A DNA stretch of 57,410 bases, counting the filler, from Basidiobolus ranarum (Eukaryota), in the NCBI GenBank assembly GCA_040143965.1. It is 7 parts of 7 records of this genome, joined end to end, with 100 filler letters (N's around TTAATTAATTAA, not from the genome) between each part and the next. Parts side by side here need not be neighbours in the genome. Positions count along the whole stretch, not along the records: positions 32,888 to 41,001 come from JASJQH010007893.1; 6 more parts are not named here. One strand, written 5' to 3'. Shown here one piece after another: positions 8,130-56,775 of this stretch. The translations under genes were made by a program, and so were the position numbers. The number at the start of each line of letters is the position of its first letter. Within the stretch, counting starts at the first letter, position 1. The notes beneath the pieces were generated by a model. The model saw only the letters and a program-made list of their open reading frames with translations, searched no databases and was not told where the DNA came from.

Positions 8130-8229
8130 NNNNNNNNNNNNNNNNNNNNNNNNNNNNNNNNNNNNNNNNNNNNTTAATTAATTAANNNNNNNNNNNNNNN
8201 NNNNNNNNNNNNNNNNNNNNNNNNNNNNN
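8130..8229. other. Artificial contig linker
   Basis: 100 nt of N with a central TTAATTAATTAA (stops in all six frames); identical to five other linkers. Confidence 0.98.
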
Positions 8230-16351: not shown

Positions 16352-16451
16352 NNNNNNNNNNNNNNNNNNNNNNNNNNNNNNNNNNNNNNNNNNNNTTAAT
16401 TAATTAANNNNNNNNNNNNNNNNNNNNNNNNNNNNNNNNNNNNNNNNNNNN
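16352..16451. other. Artificial contig linker
   Basis: N-TTAATTAATTAA-N, 100 nt. Confidence 0.98.
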
Positions 16452-21802: not shown

Positions 21803-24572
21803 TGTTGAAATTAGCATTGCCTAAGCACCCATATAGTCATATATAGCTTAATACCTAGTTATCTCATAATTCACCAAGATATTATCAATTATTCTCAATT
21901 AAAATTTACTTAGGATATTTTTACCAACCTAGAAGTTCTCAAATATACAGATTTTTCAAACTTGTGCTAGAAGCCCCAAACTCTGCAAGCATGTTCATGG
22001 GACTTTCCTTAGCACATTCTACATGTTAGTCTGTATACATCTTGACAAAACTAAAAATGTCATCTTTCTACTCAATAAATCAATCAGTGAAAACCACCAA
22101 TTCCTCTGATTCTCCAAACCACTCTCAACAAGCTCCCAGGTACTTTAACAGGCTATGAGCCCCATGCTTCCACTCTCTGTAATGTCTACTTCTCAAATCT
22201 ATGGAACTTTTCCCTCTTCAGAAAAATTAGATAGAACCAATTATCAAGTTTGGAAAATTAAAATCAAAATGCTGCTGCAAGAAAAAGGACTTTGGGACAT
22301 TGTTGTAGGGGAAGAAAGCAATGCAAAACTATCTGAAACCAAAGTTTTACTCCAAGCTAAATAAGAATAAAGTGCCTTCAACACAATTTGTCTTAATGAT
22401 AAAGACAAATTGCGAATTCAATGTTCAAGAGCTAAAACTGCCAAGAAGGTATAGAAAGCCTTGGAAGACACCTACAAAACAAGTTCTGCTGCCAAGAAGA
22501 TGTTTCTAAGAAGACAATTCTTTAACTCAAAGATGAAACCAGGAGAAGGCATTAAATTGCTAATTAATAGAGTCACTATTTTAGTGGATGAAATGGATTG
22601 CATTGGAGTATCTACCACTGATCACAATATCATAGTTACAGTCCTGAATAGCCTCCTACATGAGTTTCAGAGCCTAGTAATGGCTCCAGAATCAATAACT
22701 GAAAATTTGACCTTAAATTATGTATTTGGCAGACCTCTGCATGAAGATTTATGCAAATTAGGATCCAACCAAAAGCATGAAGAAAATGCTTTAATAGGCT
22801 ATGGGAAACTTTCCTGTAAAGGTCAAAAGCACTTTAACAAGAAAATTAACACATTCTGTGATTACAGTAAAAGAACTTGCCATTTAAGCAAAGATTGCTT
22901 TGAAAGATTTGCAACAAAAGAAAAACATACTGAATCTGGAAATGTGGTTACAACAGAAGATCACTTGTTCATATCTGCTCCATCTCTGACTATCAACAAG
23001 GATTCCCTGATGTGGTATATTCATTCTGGAGACTCCCAACATTTCACAAATGAAAAACATTGGTTTGTGGATTATCAAGAAATCCCAATTAGAAAGGTTT
23101 TCATGGGAGATAACTGCACCTTGGATGCCATTGGAATGGGAACTATTCAAGTCAATTTAACTGGTGCTTCTGAAGAGAAAATGTATACTTATAAGGGTGT
23201 GCTACATGTTCCAGATATTGCCAAGAACTTAATATCTGTATGCAAGGCCACCTCAGAAGCACTAAAATTCAATTTTCACAAGTAATGATATACAATCACT
23301 GATCAAAATGGGAATTATCTTTGGGAGAAAAGAATCAGAGCTTGTACAAACTTACATATAATCCAAGAGGTTTATATGTAAATAAAAGTTACTCCAATCA
23401 AAAAACTATTCAATTATGGCATCAGAGCTTTGGCCATATTAGATTTGATTTTTGAGCAAAATGACAAAAATTGCCTAATTTTGGTAATTCAAATTGAACC
23501 AAAATGAAAATTTGCAAGGGTTATATATATGGAAAGCAGGTCAGGCAACTGCTCAAGAGCTCTGGGTTAATGAAATCTGTCAAAAAATTGGATTTAATTC
23601 ATTCAGATTTGTGTGGACCTATGCAAAATCTATCTTTAGGCAGAAAAAGATATTCATTTGCATTTATTGAAGATCATACAAGATACACTTGGGTCTACTT
23701 TATGGAAAGAAAAGAAGAAGCTCTCTGTATCTTTAGAGACTTTAAAACACTTGTGGAGACTCAAACTGGAACTAAAATCAAGAAAATATATAATGATAAT
23801 GGTGGACAATATACTTCAACACTATTTAAGCACTTTTGCAAAGTTCATGGAATTAAGCAAGAAACTACTGCCTCCTATTCACCTCAACAAAATGGAGCTG
23901 CTGAAAGAGCTAACAAGACTATAACAGAAGTGGCATGATATATGTCAAATGCACAAAATTTATCTCATCACTTTTGGGCAGAATCTGTGGCTACAGTGGT
24001 ACATCTGAAGAATAGGAGATTTACTAGAAATCTGTCTAACTCTACACCATATCAAGCTTGTTTTGGAGTTAAACCTGATGTAAAAAATTTGAGGATCTTT
24101 GGACACATTGCTTATGTCAAAATTCTGACTAAAATTGGTCTGAATTTGTTCAAAAAAAAGTAAGAAATCCATATTCCTGGGTTTTTACACTAAAACTAAG
24201 ACCTACAGATTCTATGATATCAAAATTTCCAAGTTAATCAAGTCCAGGGTTGTTTTGTTAAACAAAAATGGAAAATTTCATCCAAAATGACCTCAGATGG
24301 TGATGAAAATCAATTTTCTCATTCTCCAAACATTCAAATTGATTCAAACCAAAACAATGAAGAAAATAGCATTCCTGTGGACCCTTTAACCAACATTTTT
24401 CACTACTGAAGTGCCCAATACAATGCCAGAAGTTGTAGAACCTTTATCCCAAACCAGAAGATCAAATTGGATCAGAAATAGCCCAGATTACTATATCAAT
24501 GAGTTGCAAAATTGGGCCTATTCCTGCACAGCTCAAATATATGAACCCCTGACTGTAAAAGAGGCCCTGAAT
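21803..24572 (+). mobile_element. Degenerate Ty1/copia LTR retrotransposon (5' LTR, PBS, gag, protease, integrase; cut by the contig end before RT)
   Basis: LTR TGTTG..TTAACA at 21803-22150; PBS GGCTATGAGCCC. Gag NYQVWKIKIKMLL; protease relic WYIHSGDSQHF; integrase LDLIHSDLCGPM...NDNGGQY...SPQQNGAAERANKT; YEPLTVKEAL. Multiple stops and frameshifts. Confidence 0.93.
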
Positions 24573-24672
24573 NNNNNNNNNNNNNNNNNNNNNNNNNNNN
24601 NNNNNNNNNNNNNNNNTTAATTAATTAANNNNNNNNNNNNNNNNNNNNNNNNNNNNNNNNNNNNNNNNNNNN
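24573..24672. other. Artificial contig linker
   Basis: N-TTAATTAATTAA-N, 100 nt. Confidence 0.98.
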
Positions 24673-24674
24673 TT

Positions 24675-27338
24675 TTCATTAGCGACAGATCAAAAGCAGT
24701 TCTTTCTTTGGACATCATGGATGAACGTGGTCTTGCTGTTGACCCACTACTAGGGGGCTTCAGCATTGGTTTGAATGAGGCTCTAAAGAGAATGGTAGAT
24801 CAAAACCAATGGTTTAGTCTTGATGGGCACTCAGCTGGTAAGGTAAGATTGTCATTTGTCTGGAAGCCTATCGATATGAAAGGTGATGTTGCTGCACCTG
24901 GTCACCTTGCCCCACCTAATGGTGTAGTGAAATTGGATATCATTGGGGCAGAGAACCTTAAGAATGTTGAAAAGATTGGTAAATCTGATCCGTACGTCGT
25001 CGTATCTGTTTCTGGAAAGCCTCTTACCAGAACCGAGGTTATCGACAACAACTTAAATCCCACGTGGAACGAAACCCACTACGTTGGTGTCAGGAGTCCA
25101 CGTGAAGTTCTATATTTCGATGTATATGACTTCGATAAGGTCGGAAAGGATAAACTCTTGGGTACTACCTCCCTTCCTGTCAGCGAAATCATTGGCAAAC
25201 AGATCAGTGATCACCAGTGGAGTCCAAGCCAGCCTAAAGATGTAAAGCTTAAGCTCTCCCATGAAGGAAAGGAAAGAGGACAGATCCATCTAAGAGTTAG
25301 CTTCAATCCAATCACAGAGCTAGTTCCTCGACGCAAGGCCATTGAGCCTAAGCGAGAGCTGACTGATGAATCATCAGAGCAGCAGAGCTTGTCAGCCGAT
25401 GTTGCTGTACCTAGAAAGGCCATAGATTACACTAAATACTCTACTGGTCTACTTTCTGTCCTTGTTTGTCATACTACGGGCATGAGACGCCATTTGGACT
25501 CTGTATACGCTGAGGTTCTTCTCAACAATAACGAATACAACGTCATTCATAGAACCAAAACTAAGAAGAGAGTTCTGGAACCCAATTTTGATGAGGAATG
25601 TGAAGTATTTATTCAAGAATCACAGTTTGCAAGAATTTCTATTTATCTTCGGGAAAGAAATGATGACAGAGTGATCATTGCTCGCAAGACCATCGATGTG
25701 CCTACTATATTGGAGCAGATGTCTGATCCTACCAAAGATCCCAAGGAAGGTTTCTGGTACGAATTCGAGAACACCGACGGCAAGATACTGCTCAAGTTCC
25801 AATTCTCCCCGGTCGAGATACAAATCGAGGAGTCAGAAAGCTGGATAAACAAAGGACTAGTCATGGTGAAGATTCTAAAGGCCCAAGGATTGCGTGCCGC
25901 TGATTCTTCTGGAACTAGTGATCCATACATTCAGGTGAAGCTGAATGCAGATAAAGTATACAAAACGAAGGTCATTAAGAAGACACTCTCCCCAGTGTAT
26001 GGTGAAGAGTTTACTGTACCAGTTCATGCCCGTAATGAATCATCATTAATCTTCGATGTATATGATTGGAACCAGCTTCAATCGAGTGAGAAATTGGGCC
26101 ATCTTCAGATCAATACAAAAAATCTTGAGCCTTTCACTTGGATTCAAGATGACTACCCTCTGCTTGAAGGCACTGGAACACTTAGCTTAAAAATAATGTT
26201 CAAGCCTGAGCATGTAGGTCGTATGACCACCGATCGTAAACAAACCTTCCATGGAGCAACCAAGAGCGCAATTGGAAAAGGCGTTGGTGGTGCTACCAAG
26301 GTCGTTGGCGGCACTCTCGGTGGTATCGGTAAAGGAGTTGGCAAGGGAGTTGGAGGGCTCTTTGGCATGAAAAAGAAAGTATTGGATCCAGGTGCTATTG
26401 TTGCCCCTCCTGCGAACACTAATATGCCTCTGGAGACATATTCTACTCACAGTAGTATTAGCAGTACCAGCATTAATTTACCCGATACGTCTAATGTGCC
26501 AAATACACCAAATACGTCTAATATGCCAAACATGCCAAACATGCCGAATATGCCAAATACACCTAATGCTCCAACAAACGCTGAAAGCACCATCGATAAC
26601 ACAGAGCCATCCAGCCCATCCAACTTGGATGAGTCTTTATCTATGAACCGCTCAGTCAATGAAGTTGAAGAACTTGCGCCTCCAGCGATTGTTGATTCCA
26701 CACTAAACCCTGGTTTGACTATCAACGAACCTCAACCTGACATAAACTCACTCTCAGCACCACAGTCACCAGTTACCGACGTATCTAATAATAGGCTATC
26801 CATTGCCAATATGGACGATGTAAGTGAAATCTCAGGTGGAAGCGGTGGCCTGGACTATCATAGTGAGGATAATCACGGCGAGCCCGGATTTTTGACGGTC
26901 GAAATTCTGCAAGCGAAAGAGCTCATTGCTGCCGATAGTAATGGATTAAGCGACCCTTATGTTCGAGTCCGATGGGGCCGTAAATCGATTTACAAGACTA
27001 AGGTCATCAAGAAAACTCTCGAACCAAAATGGAATGAAAGCTTCACGATTCCTGTAGATGGTTCTCCAGTCAGACTTAATTTCTCTGTGCGTGATCGGAA
27101 TATTCTTCAAGATGTGTACTTGGGAGAATACGAGACTAACGCCTGGGAGCATGTTCATCTCAATAACACCCAACCTAGCGAGGAGAAATGGTTTGAGCTT
27201 CTTAAAACTGATCGGGGTAAGATTCAATTGAAATTCACATTCGCCATAACCAATACTCCTGGATCAAGCGATATGATAGACTCCCTCTCCGGTTCTACGA
27301 GGAAGAAGCTTGGCTTCAGTACTTTTAAAAGAAAGTAG
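24675..27338 (+). CDS. Tricalbin / extended-synaptotagmin family multi-C2 protein, 3' part (5'-truncated)
   Basis: Several C2 domains (GKSDPYVVV, AADSSGTSDPYIQV, AADSNGLSDPYVRV, KTKVIKKTL.P.WNE). Frame is open from the contig start. Confidence 0.9.
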   Translation, partial: FISDRSKAVLSLDIMDERGLAVDPLLGGFSIGLNEALKRMVDQNQWFSLDGHSAGKVRLSFVWKPIDMKGDVAAPGHLAPPNGVVKLDIIGAENLKNVEKIGKSDPYVVVSVSGKPLTRTEVIDNNLNPTWNETHYVGVRSPREVLYFDVYDFDKVGKDKLLGTTSLPVSEIIGKQISDHQWSPSQPKDVKLKLSHEGKERGQIHLRVSFNPITELVPRRKAIEPKRELTDESSEQQSLSADVAVPRKAIDYTKYSTGLLSVLVCHTTGMRRHLDSVYAEVLLNNNEYNVIHRTKTKKRVLEPNFDEECEVFIQESQFARISIYLRERNDDRVIIARKTIDVPTILEQMSDPTKDPKEGFWYEFENTDGKILLKFQFSPVEIQIEESESWINKGLVMVKILKAQGLRAADSSGTSDPYIQVKLNADKVYKTKVIKKTLSPVYGEEFTVPVHARNESSLIFDVYDWNQLQSSEKLGHLQINTKNLEPFTWIQDDYPLLEGTGTLSLKIMFKPEHVGRMTTDRKQTFHGATKSAIGKGVGGATKVVGGTLGGIGKGVGKGVGGLFGMKKKVLDPGAIVAPPANTNMPLETYSTHSSISSTSINLPDTSNVPNTPNTSNMPNMPNMPNMPNTPNAPTNAESTIDNTEPSSPSNLDESLSMNRSVNEVEELAPPAIVDSTLNPGLTINEPQPDINSLSAPQSPVTDVSNNRLSIANMDDVSEISGGSGGLDYHSEDNHGEPGFLTVEILQAKELIAADSNGLSDPYVRVRWGRKSIYKTKVIKKTLEPKWNESFTIPVDGSPVRLNFSVRDRNILQDVYLGEYETNAWEHVHLNNTQPSEEKWFELLKTDRGKIQLKFTFAITNTPGSSDMIDSLSGSTRKKLGFSTFKRK
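26482..26580 (+). repeat. Coding 9-bp tandem repeat (Pro-Asn-Met/Thr) in the tricalbin linker
   Basis: PDTSNVPNTPNTSNMPNMPNMPNMPNTPNAPTN, with CCAAA(T/C)A(T/C)G-like units. Confidence 0.8.
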
Positions 27339-32787: not shown

Positions 32788-32887
32788 NNNNNNNNNNNNN
32801 NNNNNNNNNNNNNNNNNNNNNNNNNNNNNNNTTAATTAATTAANNNNNNNNNNNNNNNNNNNNNNNNNNNNNNNNNNNNNNNNNNNN
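32788..32887. other. Artificial contig linker
   Basis: N-TTAATTAATTAA-N, 100 nt. Confidence 0.98.
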
Positions 32888-34047
32888 CAAGACCCAAACA
32901 AAAAGAGAAAACTAGCATTTTCAAATTTGATCAGAACTGACGGTTTCACTGCAGATGTTGTCCTTCAAAAAAGTGTCAAAACAAATATTGATGACTATGC
33001 TCATTATTCTGGCCAAGATCTTGACATTTCGCTGGTGGGTGATGTTATGAAAAACGAAAACATGAACGATGTTTCTCTTTGTGCAATAGATCTTAATCGA
33101 AACCAAGTATTCGCTGCCTCGTATGGTGATGGTGATATTTCTCACCAGCTTAGAAGGTGTTCTACTTTGGAGTACTATACATACACAGGCTCCAAAAGGC
33201 ATGCAAAGCGGGAAATGGAAATAATGTGTGTTGAAGATATGAGCACCATTTTTAACCAACAGCAAAAACAGTTAACACTTCGTCATACTTACAATATGTC
33301 ACTTACATTTTGCTGCACCTTCAGAAAATACTGGCATTCAATCACCATTCTAGAGCCAAGAATCGTTTTCATTTGTACCAAGGCGTGCAAAGGGCTAGAC
33401 AAGAAATGGTAAACATTTTGGTTAACAGTGGTAGAAAGTATAATAAATCAAAACGAAAAAACACAAAGAAGAATAGGAAGAAAAGAAAGAGGGAATAAGA
33501 AAGAAACATGCAAACTATAGCAGTAAACAAGAAGCACAAATAAATTCAAAGTCCAGGAAAGATAGAAGTGATTACCATATTCATTTTAGTGTTTTTTTAG
33601 AAGAGCCACCAGATACTGGAAGCCAGAGCAATTCTAACAACATAAAGACAAGTTGTCCATCATATCTTCCGGTAATGGAATGTTTGGAAAAGATTCAGTC
33701 AAGTTCAACGGCCTCAGAACTGGGGTCACTGGGGTACTTGGGCGTCAGCTTAAATACAGACAAAAATCTGATGATTTATTACTTGCTATTGTAGACGAAT
33801 TTCGTACTTCACAGTCTGTTTTTATTTTACGATTATACATCTAACACTTTTACTCATATAGACATGCCATTCATGTAATGAAATGTCTCCCATTGAAGTA
33901 ATCACTGATTTAAATAGTGTTCTCACTTGCAAAAGTTGCGGAATGATATAGCAACGTGATGTCAATGCTTCAAAGGACATCTTCAAGATTTCCAAAGACG
34001 TAATCAGAGGTCATGGGCGCCCAACAGCGTTTTCTCGAAGTCAGTAA
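32888..34047 (+). pseudogene. Degenerate Fanzor (eukaryotic TnpB-like RNA-guided nuclease), relic B; 5'-truncated by the contig start
   Basis: FSNLIRTDGF...CAIDLNRNQVF (RuvC-I D, 33089-91)...RRCSTLEYYTYTG /frameshift/ TAKT...RFHLYQGVQRARQEMVNIL...IISSGNGMFG...AIVDEFRTSQ (RuvC-II E, 33797-99) [intron relic to 33861] TCHSC...LTCKSCGMI*QRDVNASKDI (RuvC-III D, 33958-60)...GHGRPTAFSRSQ*. Confidence 0.9.
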
Positions 34048-34241
34048 CTTCTGTTACCGTTTTTACTACATTGCCGTCTCGAACACGATTTCTCTTTTCA
34101 AAGAGATTTAGATTTTTACAGGTAAATTGTCTACAAAATATTCCTTATTTGTCTAAAAACTAACATTGTTTCGTCTCAAATCAAATTCTCATTCGTCTAA
34201 AAAGATTTCCATTCGTCTCAATTTTAGGTTTAAATACTGTA
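34048..34241 (+). mobile_element. Tc1/mariner-type right end (TIR region plus TA target site) of the Fanzor-carrying element; candidate omegaRNA region
   Basis: Ends ...TTTTAGGTTTAAATACTG|TA, which reads TA|CAGT from outside. Five TT(C)GTCT-core repeats at a 20-22-nt period (34127-34221). Hairpin TCTCTT-ttca-AAGAGA at 34091-34106. Confidence 0.7.
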
Positions 34242-35390
34242 CTCTTGCATATTTCAAGCAATGAGAGAATTAAATAAAATATAAATTTCCTTGTTACATA
34301 TGAAAACTCATTTGACCAGAGCTGATTGAGATTACGCTAAGTAAGGCATGATGTATACTTTGTACATGTTTAATTTGGCATACAATAGGACTGTTTCCAA
34401 AAGGAATGGTGCATAAGTTGGGTGGACCAACTAGTATGCCAACAGCTATTCGACGGTACATAGTTTCCGTAGTCGTTACCAGGCTCTAAGTATGGAACAT
34501 TCCATGTTGTTGGGAGGGGGGAGGAGGAGTTGATGAGCACATCCTTTTTGCTCACTCAATTTACAACTTTGCATTCAGCTTTCAGCTCGTGTTGCATAAG
34601 CATCTAGCTGTCTTTCTGAAATTGAGCATCGGCTATAGTAGTGTGTATACAGCTCAAATGGAACATAGTGAAATAAAGGACAATCTCATACGCAAAAGCG
34701 TAGTATTGTCATAGCAATTGGTGGTTAAAAACATGGCTGGCATAGTACGATGAAAAGCTTATGTATGGCTATAGTTATCCATTCTGTTTCGCTTATTACA
34801 GTCGCTATTGATAGTTGCTAATCAACAATCAAATATATATGTGAGATCAATTTGTGGGCTAGAATGAAGTGGTCCAGTCAAACCGCGGTTATTGTTTGAA
34901 GGAATAAGCAGCGGTGATGTAACTTGTACTAATAGCCAATTTATCGCCGATAAATCATCTCAAACAAATTCAACACAATAACCTATAGTTCGGGAAAATA
35001 AGTTCTCCAACTATGTTAAGAGAGAGGGACATGAAACAGCATATCTATTTATATGTAGAGGCGGCCGCTTGGATTCCGGCAGCACTGGTTGACTGTTGGC
35101 TTCTACTTCTTTCTTTTCATAACACACCTCGTCTATCCCTTTATTGAAGTCCACTCGATTTCATATCTTAATTCAGTAATTTCGTGACATACAAATTCAG
35201 CACCTCAAACTCAGAGTGTTGATAAGTCTGAAAGCTACTCCTTCTCCCATAGAGAATATACATTGACCGATAACGTATATTTAATCATATATCTTATACG
35301 AGATAGTTGCCGTCTCTTTCATTCCACTCTAACGACATAAAAGGAGTCAAAGCCTAAATCACGTATTGCTTCATAGAAGTTATTCGAGTT

Positions 35391-36433
35391 ATGATTGACC
35401 AACCTACTTCTTCATCGGCTCAAAACATCTTGACCAAGTATTTTCGTCGATCTACCGCTTCCAACTCTGATCTTAAGTCTAGTTGTGTGGCTTCTAGTAC
35501 AACCAGTCGCTCCTCCAAAACCTTAAATCCTGATAATTCACAAGACCCAGCATATCAACTTAGACGACATCTGATAGGTACGCTCATTTCTTACTTATGG
35601 CGTATATACTATGATAATCGAAGTTTCTCCCAACTAACGTGAATATGTATATGTTTGTATGTTTAGAAATTGCTGCTAAGATAGTTAACTGCTTGTTTCA
35701 GTGTGGAAGACCAAAATCAAAAGAGCCAGGAGAGCACGATCTTCCCAAATTAACCGATTTTATCTATCGCCTCTTACGCCGAACAAACCTATCCAACAAT
35801 AACCTTTTGACTGCCCTGATCTATCTCATCCGACTTAAACAACGACATCCAGGCTGCAAAGGAGCATACGGCTCAGGCCATCGATTATTTTTAGCTGCCT
35901 TGATCAGTGCTAACAAATATCTCCATGACGATGCCTACCACAATAAATCGTGGGCAATTGTAGCAAATGGCTTATTTAACTTGGAAGAAATTAACCAAAT
36001 GGAATCAGAACTGCTGTTCTATTTAAACTTCAAGCTAGTTGTCACAAAGGACCAATGGCTAGATTTCCTGAGGCTGATGGAGCCAAAGGTTTTGAAGTGC
36101 TGGAATCGTAATGATTATAACGGTCCAGATAACTATCTTTTCGACTCCTGTACGGCTAATATCGACGGTCCTCTGGGAAATATAAACGACGCCAATAACG
36201 GTACATCCCCCCATCACTCTCTTTCTGAAATCATGAAACTAACCGTATTTCTGAAAGCAGCACCAGTAGAAAACCATTCATCTATCGCCTCCAAGCGTGC
36301 AAAGCTAAGCACAACCATAGAGAACTTAGACCTTGCCTTGTTAAGTGGAGGTAAAGCACGACGTACCAGTATTCCAAGTCTGCCACCGGTGTGGGAGCTC
36401 CTATCACAGAAGAATTCAGCCAAATATGCTTAG
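35391..36433 (+). CDS. Pho85-type (Pcl/Pho80 family) cyclin, 2 exons
   Basis: Intron 35578-35666. Cyclin box LPKLTDFIYRLL...LLTALIYLIRLK...HRLFLAALISANKYLHDDAYHNKSWA...EINQMESELLFYLNFKL. Confidence 0.9.
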
Positions 36434-41001: not shown

Positions 41002-41101
41002 NNNNNNNNNNNNNNNNNNNNNNNNNNNNNNNNNNNNNNNNNNNNTTAATTAATTAANNNNNNNNNNNNNNNNNNNNNNNNNNNNNNNNNNNNNNNNNNN
41101 N
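41002..41101. other. Artificial contig linker
   Basis: N-TTAATTAATTAA-N, 100 nt. Confidence 0.98.
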
Positions 41102-49210: not shown

Positions 49211-49310
49211 NNNNNNNNNNNNNNNNNNNNNNNNNNNNNNNNNNNNNNNNNNNNTTAATTAATTAANNNNNNNNNNNNNNNNNNNNNNNNNNNNNNNNNN
49301 NNNNNNNNNN
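49211..49310. other. Artificial contig linker
   Basis: N-TTAATTAATTAA-N, 100 nt. Confidence 0.98.
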
Positions 49311-49999: not shown

Positions 50000-51162
50000 A
50001 AAAGGAAGTCAAGTTTAACCTATATGATTCCCGACTGGGTCTTTTTCTATAGTTTGGATGACAAAAAAGATTTACTTGACTACGATTGCTAATTATATGA
50101 TTATTAATTATATTTTACCCATTCCATCAACTTGTGCTGGTCAAATATTGAGTCATGATAAATATATTCCATATAACCCTAACCCTAATCCTTAACTAGA
50201 CCAAGTTGAACAACCAACTAATATCAATGGTGCTTGATTCCTGAAATCCCAGCCTAAGCGCACTAAGTGATACCACAAGTGCCTGGCTAAAAGATCGAGT
50301 GGCATGTTGGTCAAATACAGAACCTGACATTCACCTTCCCTTCCCTTGCCGATCCCGTTGCGCCGTCATGCACTGAAAGTATAATGTATAGAGCGAACAA
50401 CGACCGTGAACAACGACTGCAATGCAAAGAATATCGAAGGCCAACATGTAAACAAAGCAATTAATTCGAAAAAGAATTCCCCCGTGATCTCGCACATCTT
50501 AACCCGTCCAATCATTATAACGTACATTCAATAACTATTGACCCCAAACCTCTTTTGCTTAGACCAGACCATCATGTGACCTTCTTTTTACCCATCACCC
50601 GCGATGTCTCGCCCATGACTTACGACTGCTATCAGAAACCAGTTAAGAATATATGCACATTTACCTGTCTCAAACTAAGCTTCTGGAGGAAGAATTGGAT
50701 TTTTATTAGTTTCGTCAATCTCTCGAGTCCAATAATATGCTGACTATGGTGATTCAGATTACAGATTATATGTAATCTTGGAATGAAAGCATTGAATCGA
50801 ATTAAATCCTCTAACTATCAATTGGGACGCTTTCCAATTTGATGACTTTTTTATTACTTTAGAATAAGCAAGTCCGATTTTAATGGAAAATTACATCATC
50901 CTGAATAGCCACCGTCACATCTGTAGCTGAACAATTCGATGTCACTCCTTTTTTCCATCAATCTCTTCATTTTTAAAAGAGATCCCTGATTCCTATTTAA
51001 TACTCTTTAGGTTACCTCTCTTACGTTTACATCTATCCTGTTAATAGTTGACATATTATTTCGGTTCAGCACACTAATATTACTTTACATTCCTTCCTGA
51101 ATAGCGTGAAGCTTCCATTTGCTCAGTTTTTTCACAAACATCAGAGTATTGCAGCCCTCATT

Positions 51163-52680
51163 ATGGTTTCTTTTTTCCCTGTTATCTCAGCGTGTGTTCA
51201 ACTATGGCGCTCAACAGTATTCTGGGTCGTTAATCCGCTATTTGAGCTTTGTGAGTCTTTATTGACCGAAGGACTTCAAGAATCCGATTTACTAGCAATA
51301 TTAAGTTTTTCGAATCAGATAGAGTCAGAATCAGCCCAATATTTCCGACAAAAAGAATCTCTTAAAGCTCACTTTAAAACTCCTACAGTTACAAGTCTTC
51401 AGTTTAAAAGGGGTCCGGTTGAAACTGGGACTGGGGAGCACTCTTCGTTTTCTCGTATCACAGTGAGAGATTTACCTCAGGAGATTCTCTTCCACATTCT
51501 TTCTATGGACGAAAATCCCGTTGCTTTGCGTAACCTAATACTCGTGAACAAACTCTGGTACCGACTGGTTGTGCCTCTTCTTTATAAAAGCCCAAAGATT
51601 TATCCCAACAACACGTACCAAAACATTTTCTCGACGCAATCTGTTTGGAATACTATAACTCGGCCTATTACCTCTAGATTTGATTCACAAGGATTGCCAA
51701 AAAACTTTCCAATAAAAGTATACGGAGGACTTATTCAGAGCCTTAACTTGACCGATGGTCAAGAACTCGTCACGGATGCTACCATTAAAGCATTGGCCTG
51801 TTTTTGTCCCAACTTAAAAAGGATAAACCTCAGCTCCTGTTTCAACATTACTGACAATTCACTGGTTGACATACTGGAGGCCTGCTCCCATTCTCTCGAA
51901 TCTATTAATCTAAATGGCTGTAGCAAAATAACCGATAACGGAGTAGCTTTAATTGGCCTCAAGTGCTCCAGAGTCGAAAGTGTTAACCTTGCGGGCTGTC
52001 ATGAAATTACGGACTCAACCATCATTTCGATCTCCGAAGGTTGTCGCTCCTTAAAACAACTGAGAATTTCCGATTGCAGCTCTGTCACCCACAAATCTAT
52101 TTTGACACTCGTTCTAAATTGCCCCAGATTGCAGTGGTTAGATATTGCCCGTATAGGGTCAATGTCAGACAGGTGTGTTCGAGCCATCGCAGATACATGT
52201 CGTGAACTTGAATGGATCAATCTCGCACGTCCCTCTTTCTTCCATGCACTCTTTCCTCATTCAGCAAGTAATATTGCCCTTTTACCAGAAGAACCGGATA
52301 TAAGCGACGACACAATACATCGTCTCGTCACCAATTGTCCTCGTCTTCAGTTACTCGACATCAGCTATGTGCCTTCCATTACCAACTCGTCCATTGAGTC
52401 CATATCAGAACATGCATCACAATTGGTCTGCCTAACCATCATTGGATGTCGTCAAATTACTGCCGAAGCATTAAGAAGCCTAGCCAAGTTACGAAAGCGA
52501 GCAGGTCGTTTAGGGTGTATAACAATGGGGGACTCACCAAATTTAAGCGAAGAAAATATAGAAGAAATCACTAATGAACCTGAAGGGTTATTGAGTGGAT
52601 GGCAAAAGAGTGCTGTTGATGAAGGATCCCTCAAAGAAGTTCTCGGAGGTATGTCGTGGGATGATGTAGGCTCATGGTAG
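51163..52680 (+). CDS. F-box / leucine-rich-repeat (Cys-containing LRR) protein, intronless
   Basis: F-box DLPQEILFHIL...LVNKLWYRLVVPLLYKSP; repeated L..L.L..C..ITD LRRs. ATG at 51163 is used rather than the GTG in the ORF track. Confidence 0.9.
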   Translation: MVSFFPVISACVQLWRSTVFWVVNPLFELCESLLTEGLQESDLLAILSFSNQIESESAQYFRQKESLKAHFKTPTVTSLQFKRGPVETGTGEHSSFSRITVRDLPQEILFHILSMDENPVALRNLILVNKLWYRLVVPLLYKSPKIYPNNTYQNIFSTQSVWNTITRPITSRFDSQGLPKNFPIKVYGGLIQSLNLTDGQELVTDATIKALACFCPNLKRINLSSCFNITDNSLVDILEACSHSLESINLNGCSKITDNGVALIGLKCSRVESVNLAGCHEITDSTIISISEGCRSLKQLRISDCSSVTHKSILTLVLNCPRLQWLDIARIGSMSDRCVRAIADTCRELEWINLARPSFFHALFPHSASNIALLPEEPDISDDTIHRLVTNCPRLQLLDISYVPSITNSSIESISEHASQLVCLTIIGCRQITAEALRSLAKLRKRAGRLGCITMGDSPNLSEENIEEITNEPEGLLSGWQKSAVDEGSLKEVLGGMSWDDVGSW

Positions 52681-54237: not shown

Positions 54238-54891
54238 TCAGAAATATTCCGATAGCAATTCCAGATCCCAAGTTGGTAGTGAGTCATCAAAGCAAGTATT
54301 AGCTTGAACTTCTAAATCCAATGGACTGACTGGTAAATCATCCAAAAAAGAGGGTAATTGGGTAGGGAAATACCAAGTTTGAATTTTTTCTACGTGGGAT
54401 AGGAATTCTTCCAAGAAGAGTAACCATGTCTGGTATTGCTCACAACTTAAACATAAATCTAAATTGCTACTTAAAAAGTGCATCTCTAACTGATTTAGCT
54501 CCTCTATGGGGATCCCACTTGCGATAGACCAAGAGCGATTGTTGTAAGCTACATCTTCGTGGAACTTCATAGCTAGCATCAACGAGACGGTGATCAATTG
54601 GCATTCGTCGTATAAATCCTTCTCGTCGGGATGGCATTGCCGATAGCGGTGTAGGTACATCAGACCTATGATGATAACAGACCACGAGAGCTGTGTACGA
54701 TTTAAAAGGAACTGACAGAACTGTTTAAAATCTAATGGGGCAAAGCAAGTAAAGGGCACATCGTTCATGTGCCAAATAGAAAAGCACAAGTCCGATACAA
54801 CATCAACTAACTCCGAATAATCCATGATGTCATCGGGACAAGACAGGGATAGTTTGGACATAGTTAAATCATCTTCGAGTAATGTATTCAT
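54238..54891 (-). CDS. Pcl/Clg1-like cyclin (Pho80 family), intronless
   Basis: FKQFCQFLLNRTQLSWSVIIIGLMYLHRY...SLMLAMKFHEDVAYNNRSWSIASGIPIEELNQLEMHFL. Confidence 0.88.
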   Translation of the reverse strand: MNTLLEDDLTMSKLSLSCPDDIMDYSELVDVVSDLCFSIWHMNDVPFTCFAPLDFKQFCQFLLNRTQLSWSVIIIGLMYLHRYRQCHPDEKDLYDECQLITVSLMLAMKFHEDVAYNNRSWSIASGIPIEELNQLEMHFLSSNLDLCLSCEQYQTWLLFLEEFLSHVEKIQTWYFPTQLPSFLDDLPVSPLDLEVQANTCFDDSLPTWDLELLSEYF

Positions 54892-56775
54892 GATAGTGTG
54901 AGAAGGCTCAGTTCATTGATATAAGTGTATGTGCTGCACAATTCGAGGGTACCTGGCTCATCTTATATACGCTCCCACAAGCTCTTACACGATCCATGCC
55001 ACAGTGGATGTTTCACTAAACAGAGTTACTAAGGCACATTCAACCAGCCATTCTCCGGCCGTGTTACATAACATCCCCTCACCTCAATGTAAAAGGCAGA
55101 AGCAGAGCATATCAATCATTTCCTAAACTAAAAGCTAAACATAATATAAAAGGCAACCGCATCCATACAGAGCATATCGATTGGATCCAAGCAACAATAA
55201 CAAGAAAATTAAACTAAATTTGATTGGCATCAACTGATTAGACATTCAGGCAATTCTCAGATTCTTGTCCTCCTTAACGGGGTAAAGTAGGGAAGGGGCT
55301 GATTGGTGTAGTATATATATATACTCATAGAGGACTAAATGGACTCACAAACTATGATTTTCCCGCCGAATCACATAATTACTTCAGAAGAGAATGATGC
55401 ATGAATCTGCAGGCGGATAATTATTTCCCATAAATGTGACAAAGGAGTCACCGACATGAATCATCTGGTAAAACGATCTCGATCCCGCGTCTCAATTCAT
55501 AGCCAATGACAATGCATGCGCAAACATTCATTGAAATGAACATTCCACGAGGCACGCAAGCTAACCCTAAGATTCGATGATGGCAATCGCTAACCCAACC
55601 TATCCCTTACCTATCCCCATCCACTCAGACCCACCATCCCCAATCAGTAAGATATATATCAATGATCATTGCTTGCTGAAACTTCTGCCTATTGACAGCC
55701 CTTTGCCCCATCTTTGGCAATTTATCTGTTAATCAGCACGTAGTTTCAACGTCTGTATCCCCCTGATACACAGGTTCAGTCTCCTGTCACATCAGTCCAG
55801 TCAGAATTAGGGCTGAGCCCATCTAAATTTTGATATCTGCCTTTGAAACCCATCTCAACTTGTACGCAACCAAATAGAACATATATTTGGCTGGTGGCGT
55901 TTGGCAAATTGGTTCTGGATGAGTACAGACTAACCGCTTTATTCACCTTGTTCCCCTTACCACACTATTCGCTTTATTCGCTTTATTCCCACCCATGATA
56001 TCATTTTTGATTGGGAAGGTTTAGTTTGCCAAAGCCTGTTCTTTCCCCATCACTTTGCGATAAAAGAAGCGTTATTAGCACAGAATCTTCATCAAAACTA
56101 GTTGATTTTGCCTTACATATATATCGTACAACCCTAAAATCGATATTAATTGGCTGATGAGTATTGCATTTGGTGGCAAAAATTCAATAAACATCAACTA
56201 AATACGTACATATATATATATAGCCAACATTAAGTAGCATCAACTAATTGTATATATTGCCAATTGAGTAGACATCAACGAGCATTCACACTTTTTAATA
56301 CAATATCATTGCCACCAAAGTATATATTCTAGTGGCTGGTGTATACGAAAAGGACATAGTCAACACATATATTAAAATTAAGAAATAACCCCTCTGCAAT
56401 GCACATTAACTCGGTTCATCTAACTATAATCTGTCGAGTCTTAGCGTAAAGTTACAGAAGGAGAGAACAGTGCGAAAGTACTCTCCTGGATAGTTGCGAG
56501 GGTTTTTCATCTCGTGCCTACCGTGGAGATCCCAAGTGACTGACCAAAACTAGATTGATGGATTATCGAATCAAAGTTGCATTAAAGGTGATTTAAGTTA
56601 GATAAGGGGAGACACACAATGGGTGCATTAAATTAGCTTTGATTATGCTATTCACTTTGTTGTTGATCAGATTACTCGGATCCATTTGGTTGGTTTTTTT
56701 TTCTTGCGCTATCTTGGTTTTCCAATTATTTAGTAACCATAATTTTATTTCGGCTTTTCCTGTTCATTCGTCGTC

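Follow-up and report, generated by a model that had tools for sequence, protein, structure and literature searches.

Does the stretch at positions 32888-34047 (plus strand) of a 57,410-base sequence from the fungus Basidiobolus ranarum (hereafter the window, meaning all 57,410 bases) hold a gene for a Fanzor nuclease, and if so, is the gene alive? A first, sequence-only reading had described a broken copy of a TnpB/Fanzor1-type nuclease here, with all three acidic motifs kept. In our analysis, which is based on the single window copy and on database relatives, the region very probably represents the last ~45% (3' side) of a Fanzor1 gene, decayed and cut by a contig end. Genes of this kind encode eukaryotic TnpB-type nucleases that use an ωRNA as guide and travel on transposons, and the part retained here would have three exons and two short introns.

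Identity of the gene fragment

The relic is made up of four reading-frame pieces (32888-33253, 33256-33495, 33601-33814 and 33862-34047, all on the plus strand), which lie in three frames and, in a MAFFT alignment, are colinear with full-length relatives of 690-744 amino acids (aa). Together they cover the C-terminal ~45% of Fanzor1, from WED/RuvC-I through a helical insert, a Lys-rich linker, RuvC-II and the TNB zinc ribbon to RuvC-III. The sequence-only reading had joined three open reading frames (ORFs; 32840-33412, 33256-33498 and 33638-33844) and an unlisted one (33862-34047) into one protein, which the colinearity bears out, and the motifs it named (IRTDG, AIDLNR, VDEFRTSQ, CxxC...CxxC and a stop followed by QRDVNAS) are all in the sequence where it had placed them.

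Exon A part 1 (32888-33253, 122 codons) encodes WED/RuvC-I, with IRTDG at 32930-32944 and the RuvC-I motif AIDLNR at 33083-33100 (Asp codon 33089-33091). Exon A part 2 (33256-33495, 80 codons) is 86% identical to the closest database protein, P0001, and encodes the RuvC helical insert, ending in a Lys/Arg-rich linker that resembles a nuclear localization signal (NLS); its frame is closed by a TAA at 33496-33498. The linker runs on into exon A part 3 (33477-33550), in a third frame that opens no earlier than 33477 and to which the tail of another relative, P0002, aligns following a 2-nt skip at 33496. Exon B (33601-33814), placed by alignment with relatives, carries YWKP (33614-33625), SSGNGMFGKD at the canonical RuvC-II position (33665-33694), which lacks the Glu, and VDEFRTSQ (33791-33814), with the alternative RuvC-II Glu at codon 33797-33799. 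Exon C (33862-34047) holds the zinc ribbon cysteines in CHSC (33865-33876) and CKSC (33928-33939), the RuvC-III motif QRDVNAS (33952-33972, Asp codon 33958-33960), a C-terminal GHGRP motif and the natural stop TAA (34045-34047). All of these features are on the plus strand.

Why the gene begins where it does follows from how the window is built. Seven pieces of ~8.1 kb, ordered by falling length from 8129 down to 8100 nt, are joined at a regular ~8.2-kb spacing by six identical linkers of the form N44 + TTAATTAATTAA + N44 (8130-8229, 16352-16451, 24573-24672, 32788-32887, 41002-41101 and 49211-49310), an arrangement typical of unplaced contigs, and no feature is to be read across any of these junctions. 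The fourth linker (32788-32887, unstranded), recognized by its sequence and by the linker spacing, joins two unrelated pieces, and the Fanzor1 fragment begins at 32888, the first base past it. The upstream ORF therefore belongs to another contig, and the missing 5' half of the gene is an assembly limit and not a demonstrated deletion. The extent of 32888-34047 first proposed for the relic agrees with ours, but it had gone unnoticed that its start is a contig junction.

Both single pieces and a family profile were used in searches. Exon C alone matches the Pfam family PF07282 (Cas12f1-like_TNB) with 28.7 bits against a cut-off of 26.3 (E = 1.5e-6), and other Pfam zinc-ribbon families appear on it only below their cut-offs. 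Of 107 candidates, eight match exon A part 1 at E ≤ 1e-3. The top one is P0001, a hypothetical protein of Basidiobolus ranarum with 92% identity over all 122 residues (E = 2.7e-66). PF07282 was found in four of the ten longest relatives scanned, three times above the cut-off. When a profile of ten long family members was compared with PDB sequences, SpuFz1 (8gkh and six further entries) was matched in two stretches with E = 1.5e-17, followed by LaTranC (3.2e-6), the mimivirus Fanzor2 ApmFz2 (7.6e-5), TnpB (2.9e-4) and then Cas12f/Cas12m. ApmFz2 (9b0l) is also matched by exon C alone (E = 7.5e-4).

The catalytic residues of SpuFz1 are D383, E541 and D606 according to passages of Xu et al. (PMC11423790). 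Since the 8gkh chain has an N-terminal fusion to maltose-binding protein, with a counted offset of 394, these correspond to D777, E935 and D1000 of that chain. They fall on the family motifs DPGR, DE[YF]KTS and W(Q/N)RD, which are the alignment columns of AIDLNR, VDEFRTSQ and QRDVNAS in the window, so that the proposed assignment of the three acidic motifs to RuvC-I, RuvC-II and RuvC-III agrees with the SpuFz1 triad by way of the family profile. Fanzors have an alternative RuvC-II glutamate ~45 residues from the canonical position, which is itself Pro or Gly, as described in passages of PMC10530073. The Glu of VDEFRTSQ is of this Fanzor type and adjoins the TNB domain, and the canonical position, ~42 residues upstream by count, belongs to the (V)FGxG motif, which reads SSGNG here, and is occupied by G/S and not by Glu. 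Between RuvC-II and RuvC-III lies the TNB zinc ribbon CxxC...CxxC, represented by CHSC and CKSC and by the PF07282 match above the cut-off.

The fold was tested on a relative, P0060, instead of the broken window copy; its AlphaFold model (pLDDT 89.2, pTM 0.81) spans exactly the part that the window retains. The four best Foldseek matches are all SpuFz1 (E = 1e-12 to 3e-11, TMq 0.51-0.55), the protein with which a structural comparison had been suggested, and PpFz1, GtFz1, Cas12f, Cas12j, Fanzor2 and TnpB come next, with 19 chains at E ≤ 1e-3. On the strength of this model the family is predicted to have the Fanzor1 fold; the REC half falls outside the window at the contig end. The TnpB/Fanzor1 architecture that had been recognized by eye is thereby upheld by PF07282, by the colinear relatives, by the SpuFz1 profile match and by the P0060 fold.

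One might still ask if the likeness is superficial, a generic zinc ribbon accompanied by acidic motifs that arose by chance. Exon C alone does score modestly both in Pfam and against ApmFz2, and the sub-threshold zinc-ribbon families speak for such a reading. A generic ribbon does not explain ~300 residues that are colinear with proteins of the whole Fanzor1 architecture, and the profile and fold matches to SpuFz1 (E = 1.5e-17 and E = 1e-12) refute the idea, to which we assign a vanishingly small probability.

Introns, lesions and the state of the copy

The exon structure could be read with the help of L001, a 3.2-kb metagenome contig that was the only confirmed relative among 109 pattern matches in a metagenome scan with profile A2. 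L001 carries a 64-nt GT..AG intron in phase 0 (L001 2953-3016) between ...EFKTSK, directly after the TSK codon, and ICNNC. The window frame switches at the same codon boundary, and intron 2 is placed accordingly at 33815-33861 (plus strand, 47 nt, phase 0), with a CTAAC branch-like motif and an AG acceptor. Its donor bases (33815-33816) are TC and not GT. An in-frame GT at 33818, 3 nt downstream, would make a 44-nt intron and add one Ser, so the damaged splice donor claimed by the sequence-only reading, for which the GT of L001 speaks, is plausible rather than certain.

Intron 1 (33551-33600, plus strand, 50 nt, GT..AG, phase 2) was deduced from the sequence and from the homologous intron of L001. 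This stretch connects the open linker frame to RATRYWKP and accounts for one frame change. In L001, a phase-2 GT..AG intron (about 2686-2753) lies in the Lys-rich linker just ahead of the segment that precedes (V)FGxG. Several short ORFs of the close subfamily stop at the intron 1 point in codons that, as we read them, possibly encode the donor, and we read the tail of one relative, P0007, as the next exon one base out of frame. An alternative donor at 33523 (GTAAAC) was ruled out, as the sole frame that splices correctly from it has a stop at 33518-33520. Neither this probable intron at 33551-33600 nor the second frameshift had been counted before.

Both intron positions and phases are common to the window and L001, whose proteins are only 33-45% identical, and the retention of two intron positions at this level of identity fits a long residence of the family in eukaryotes. 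Bacterial contamination is in practice excluded by the introns and the fungal relatives.

Lesions were taken from a frameshift-aware alignment, with coordinates and a count of conserved columns. At frameshift 1 (33254-33255, plus strand) the residues KNI of P0001 are missing, ~7 nt are lost and the frame changes, which bears out the frameshift that had been suspected near 33255. Frameshift 2 lies near 33487-33498, within a purine tract (33477-33498), and puts the TAA at 33496 into the incoming frame; it is placed in this interval because the third frame is open only from 33477. The annotated protein P0001 ends at the same ...KKRK(K/R)E as the window, and to judge from the sequences frameshift 2 may be common to both Basidiobolus copies. 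Exon B has an in-frame TAA at 33635-33637, and in exon C a TAG (33949-33951) directly before QRDVNAS replaces the Trp of WQRD that is present in 11 of 12 relatives. The "several stops" of the first reading are thus the TAA at 33496 (in the incoming frame), the TAA at 33635 and the TAG at 33949.

Conserved sites have also changed. The Pro adjoining the RuvC-I Asp, in a column invariant in ten relatives, is Leu in the window, and the Phe of VFG is Ser. In total, 2 of 36 invariant columns are altered in the N-terminal part and 8 of 26 near-invariant columns in the C-terminal part, where some differences may be subfamily-specific, the reference sequences there being more distant; P0001 differs at 4 of the 36 N-terminal columns.

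Could the gene nevertheless be alive, and the breaks be mistakes made in sequencing or in assembling the draft? The assembly is indeed highly fragmented, to the ~8.1-kb pieces and linkers described above, frameshift 2 lies in an A/G-rich tract, and the copy has kept its catalytic residues as well as all four cysteines of the zinc ribbon. The stops at 33635 and 33949 are base substitutions at conserved sense positions, the ~7 nt lost at frameshift 1 are no homopolymer slip, the intron 2 donor reads TC, and the replacements of conserved residues (Pro to Leu by the RuvC-I Asp, Phe to Ser in VFG, the C-terminal columns) speak against errors as well. Among the five lesions only frameshift 2 could reasonably be an assembly error, and we regard a living gene at this locus as very unlikely. 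The window copy is a pseudogene that is unable to make the nuclease: its frame shifts twice, exons B and C each hold an internal stop, the intron 2 donor is probably damaged, and conserved residues have been replaced. No intact ORF of the kind that an active Fanzor1 nuclease has is found at the locus, which is a Fanzor1 member by descent and not a functional one.

Several results weigh against the interpretation as a decayed Fanzor1 gene fragment, and they concern single pieces, the reading of the frames and the flanks. Four of the five pieces have no Pfam match on their own. The N-terminal profile A1 gave no match at E ≤ 1 among PDB sequences, the RuvC-II piece alone matched only an irrelevant chain there (E = 0.9), and the C-terminal piece 33638-33817 matched none of 54 candidates among longer database proteins. 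The placement of the triad on SpuFz1 is transitive. Intron 1, deduced from DNA comparison, has a weak donor (GTCCAG), and in the purine-rich tract of frameshift 2 an assembly error is conceivable. On the 3' side, no ωRNA-like fold was found, the segment 33960-34250 showing no excess folding energy (z = -0.42), and Rfam returned no family above its threshold, the one match scoring 19.3 bits where the gathering score is 50. A search for transposon ends in 32888-36000 yielded three weak inverted pairs, none of which brackets the gene, and the left end falls beyond the contig start.

By analogy with characterized Fanzor1, the protein of the intact ancestral element would have bound an ωRNA transcribed from the 3' end of the element. 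The complex would have cleaved double-stranded DNA beside a target-adjacent motif (TAM), using a single RuvC site of Asp, Glu and Asp, and cleavage presumably aided the persistence of the transposon. About 100 nt 3' of the stop lies an array with a 22-nt period (34146-34218, plus strand; 3.4 copies, 70% matches, consensus about TATTCGTCTAAAAACAAATTC). It is the one hint of a carrier transposon, of which it could be a subterminal repeat, but it could also belong to the 3' non-coding sequence. Four of the seven matches to TYGTCTMAA in the window fall within this array, and a total of seven is not unusual, as 4 of 100 shuffles reach it. L001 is uninformative on the 3' flank because it stops at the gene end.

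Relatives, genomic setting and significance

When 1.84 billion proteins were searched with a profile of the exon A part 1 matches, E ≤ 1e-3 was reached by 686 cluster representatives, mostly fragments, of which 300 lie at ≤ 1e-10 and 80 at ≤ 1e-30, and 106 proteins at E ≤ 1e-5 were obtained among 3347 candidates. Named relatives come from Rhizopus, Mucor, Parasitella, Phycomyces, Mycotypha, Cokeromyces, Gilbertella, Pilobolus and Benjaminiella, nine genera of the Mucorales, apart from one Basidiobolus ranarum protein. The family is large, centred on Mucorales and related to SpuFz1. UniRef already calls several members "Cas12f1-like TNB domain-containing protein". The suggestion that this is a probably uncharacterized fungal Fanzor family therefore holds as far as it is a fungal Fanzor; with 686 representatives, with TNB labels in UniRef and with Mucorales Fanzor1 known since 2013, it can hardly be called obscure.

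Public gene models of the family are mostly halves, and the N-terminal halves of ~220 aa end where the linker intron starts. Some members bear unrelated names such as "CCHC-type zinc finger transcription factor", "dTDP-fucopyranose mutase" and "nitrous oxide reductase", which seem to be artefacts of annotation and to conceal the family. These halves invite the idea that the N-terminal ORF (WED/RuvC-I with the helical insert, ~220 aa) is a domesticated, nuclease-free protein, all the more as many database relatives measure 218-270 aa and stop immediately past the Lys-rich stretch. That end is the position of the conserved phase-2 intron, so the short models look like gene-calling truncations and not like a separate protein; their last codons could encode the GT donor, and the tail of P0007 points the same way. 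Moreover, longer relatives run on into RuvC-II/TNB, and in the window the segment is itself split by frameshift 1. Domestication is therefore extremely unlikely in our view, and we retain the reading of the N-terminal pieces as part of one Fanzor1 gene.

A quick, unrooted IQ-TREE phylogeny (113 rows, each spanning 150 or more residues of the P0001 region; 198 columns) was computed with SH-like approximate likelihood ratio test (SH-aLRT) support only. The window copy and P0001 are sisters (SH-aLRT 98) and belong to a 19-row clade (SH-aLRT 100) that also holds Gilbertella, Rhizopus stolonifer, Mucor mucedo and 14 unnamed rows. Within it, the Basidiobolus copies are nested among Mucorales sequences with a finer support of only 88-90, and along the tree only 0.55 changes per site separate the window copy from the Gilbertella protein. 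The C-terminal pieces of the window reach only ~52% identity to their closest database protein, whereas the N-terminal pieces reach 92% and 86%, so the database proteins seen do not include an intact, annotated C-terminal half from the Basidiobolus subfamily.

The nesting leads to a wider, tentative scenario, in which Fanzor1 transposons moved horizontally between Mucorales and Basidiobolus, which belong to different phyla, in which intact members could be active nucleases with a TAM and an ωRNA of their own, and in which giant viruses could act as vectors. The support of 88-90 is unstarred, the tree is unrooted and most rows are unnamed, and we consider this scenario possible but rather unlikely.

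An Atlas look-up with another relative, P0011, gives a lead on such vectors: among the nearest language-model clusters, one is 76% viral (Nucleocytoviricota) with PF26935 (DUF8286), and another has PF07282 and occurs most often in Zoopagomycota. In a Pfam scan, DUF8286 did not match the window pieces.

In the window itself, tblastn with eight relatives and self-blastn returned only the one Fanzor1 locus and no further copies. Five small ORFs on the opposite strand and in the flanks of the relic were scanned, and none has a family above threshold. Some 1.5 kb past the 3' end of the relic, in the same orientation, there is a PHO80-type cyclin ORF, a host gene (35618-36430, plus strand; Cyclin_N 2.5e-12, Cyclin 6e-12), and a second PHO80-type cyclin ORF is found at 54241-54912 on the minus strand (Pfam Cyclin, 2.7e-10). 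A polyprotein fragment of a copia-type long terminal repeat (LTR) retrotransposon (22455-23282, plus strand; Retrotran_gag_2 1.1e-14, Pol_BBD 3e-22) sits on a different contig piece from the relic. Two further ORFs look like ordinary host genes, namely a long one that starts at a contig start and encodes a tricalbin-like protein with four C2 domains (24675-27335, plus strand; 2.7e-80) and an F-box/leucine-rich repeat (LRR) ORF (51052-52677, plus strand).

A full-text literature search for Fanzor together with Basidiobolus found no main-text mention, although the supplementary tables of Fanzor surveys may list such copies. For Fanzor with Zoopagomyc* it found only an unrelated mention, and for Fanzor with Mucor* co-mentions exist. 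The relic alone matters little, being one more decayed transposon gene in a setting where Fanzor1 is already common, that of early-diverging fungi. Of wider use is the observation that public annotations split the family genes at the first intron and name the halves unrelatedly, by which the family is hidden from surveys that go by name. Should the subfamily have intact copies, these would add to the candidate compact genome editors of eukaryotic origin, an incremental gain.

Comparison with known systems

The best solved relative, by profile and by fold, is SpuFz1, the Fanzor1 of Spizellomyces punctatus (8gkh, 9ceu-9cez). The domain order is the same, and the motifs DEYKTS..C, W(N/Q)RD and GHGRP are common to SpuFz1 and the window family. 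The two differ in that a family member is only ~17% identical to SpuFz1 in a structural alignment and in that the window copy is a truncated pseudogene.

Fanzor1 was described in Mucorales in 2013 as the ROr, PBl and MCi families, according to passages of Bao and Jurka (PMC3627910), and the organisms in which, by the same passages, Fanzor1 was first catalogued are those that supply the named relatives of the window copy (Rhizopus, Mucor, Phycomyces, Parasitella and others). The host here is not a member of Mucorales but Basidiobolus, of the phylum Basidiobolomycota (NCBI). Structures of SpuFz1, GtFz1 and PpFz1 are reported in passages of Xu et al. 2024 (PMC11423790). PpFz1, the Parasitella parasitica protein of that work, is a fold match of P0060 (E~2e-6) and yet has no profile match at E ≤ 1, and we accordingly assign it to another subfamily.

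With ApmFz2, bacterial TnpB and Cas12f the window family shares the RuvC-II Glu by the TNB domain, the CxxC..CxxC ribbon and RDxNA. The likeness of ApmFz2 and TnpB to the family is much weaker than that of SpuFz1 (the E-values lie more than 12 orders of magnitude apart) and is confined to the last ~70 residues. Membership in Fanzor2 or bacterial TnpB, which are compact (~400-520 aa) and have no introns, was considered and set aside. The proteins of the window family are 690-805 aa long, with two conserved introns in their genes and a Lys-rich linker. Intron gain, NLSs and the rearranged glutamate are described for Fanzors in passages of Jiang et al. 2023 (PMC10530073).

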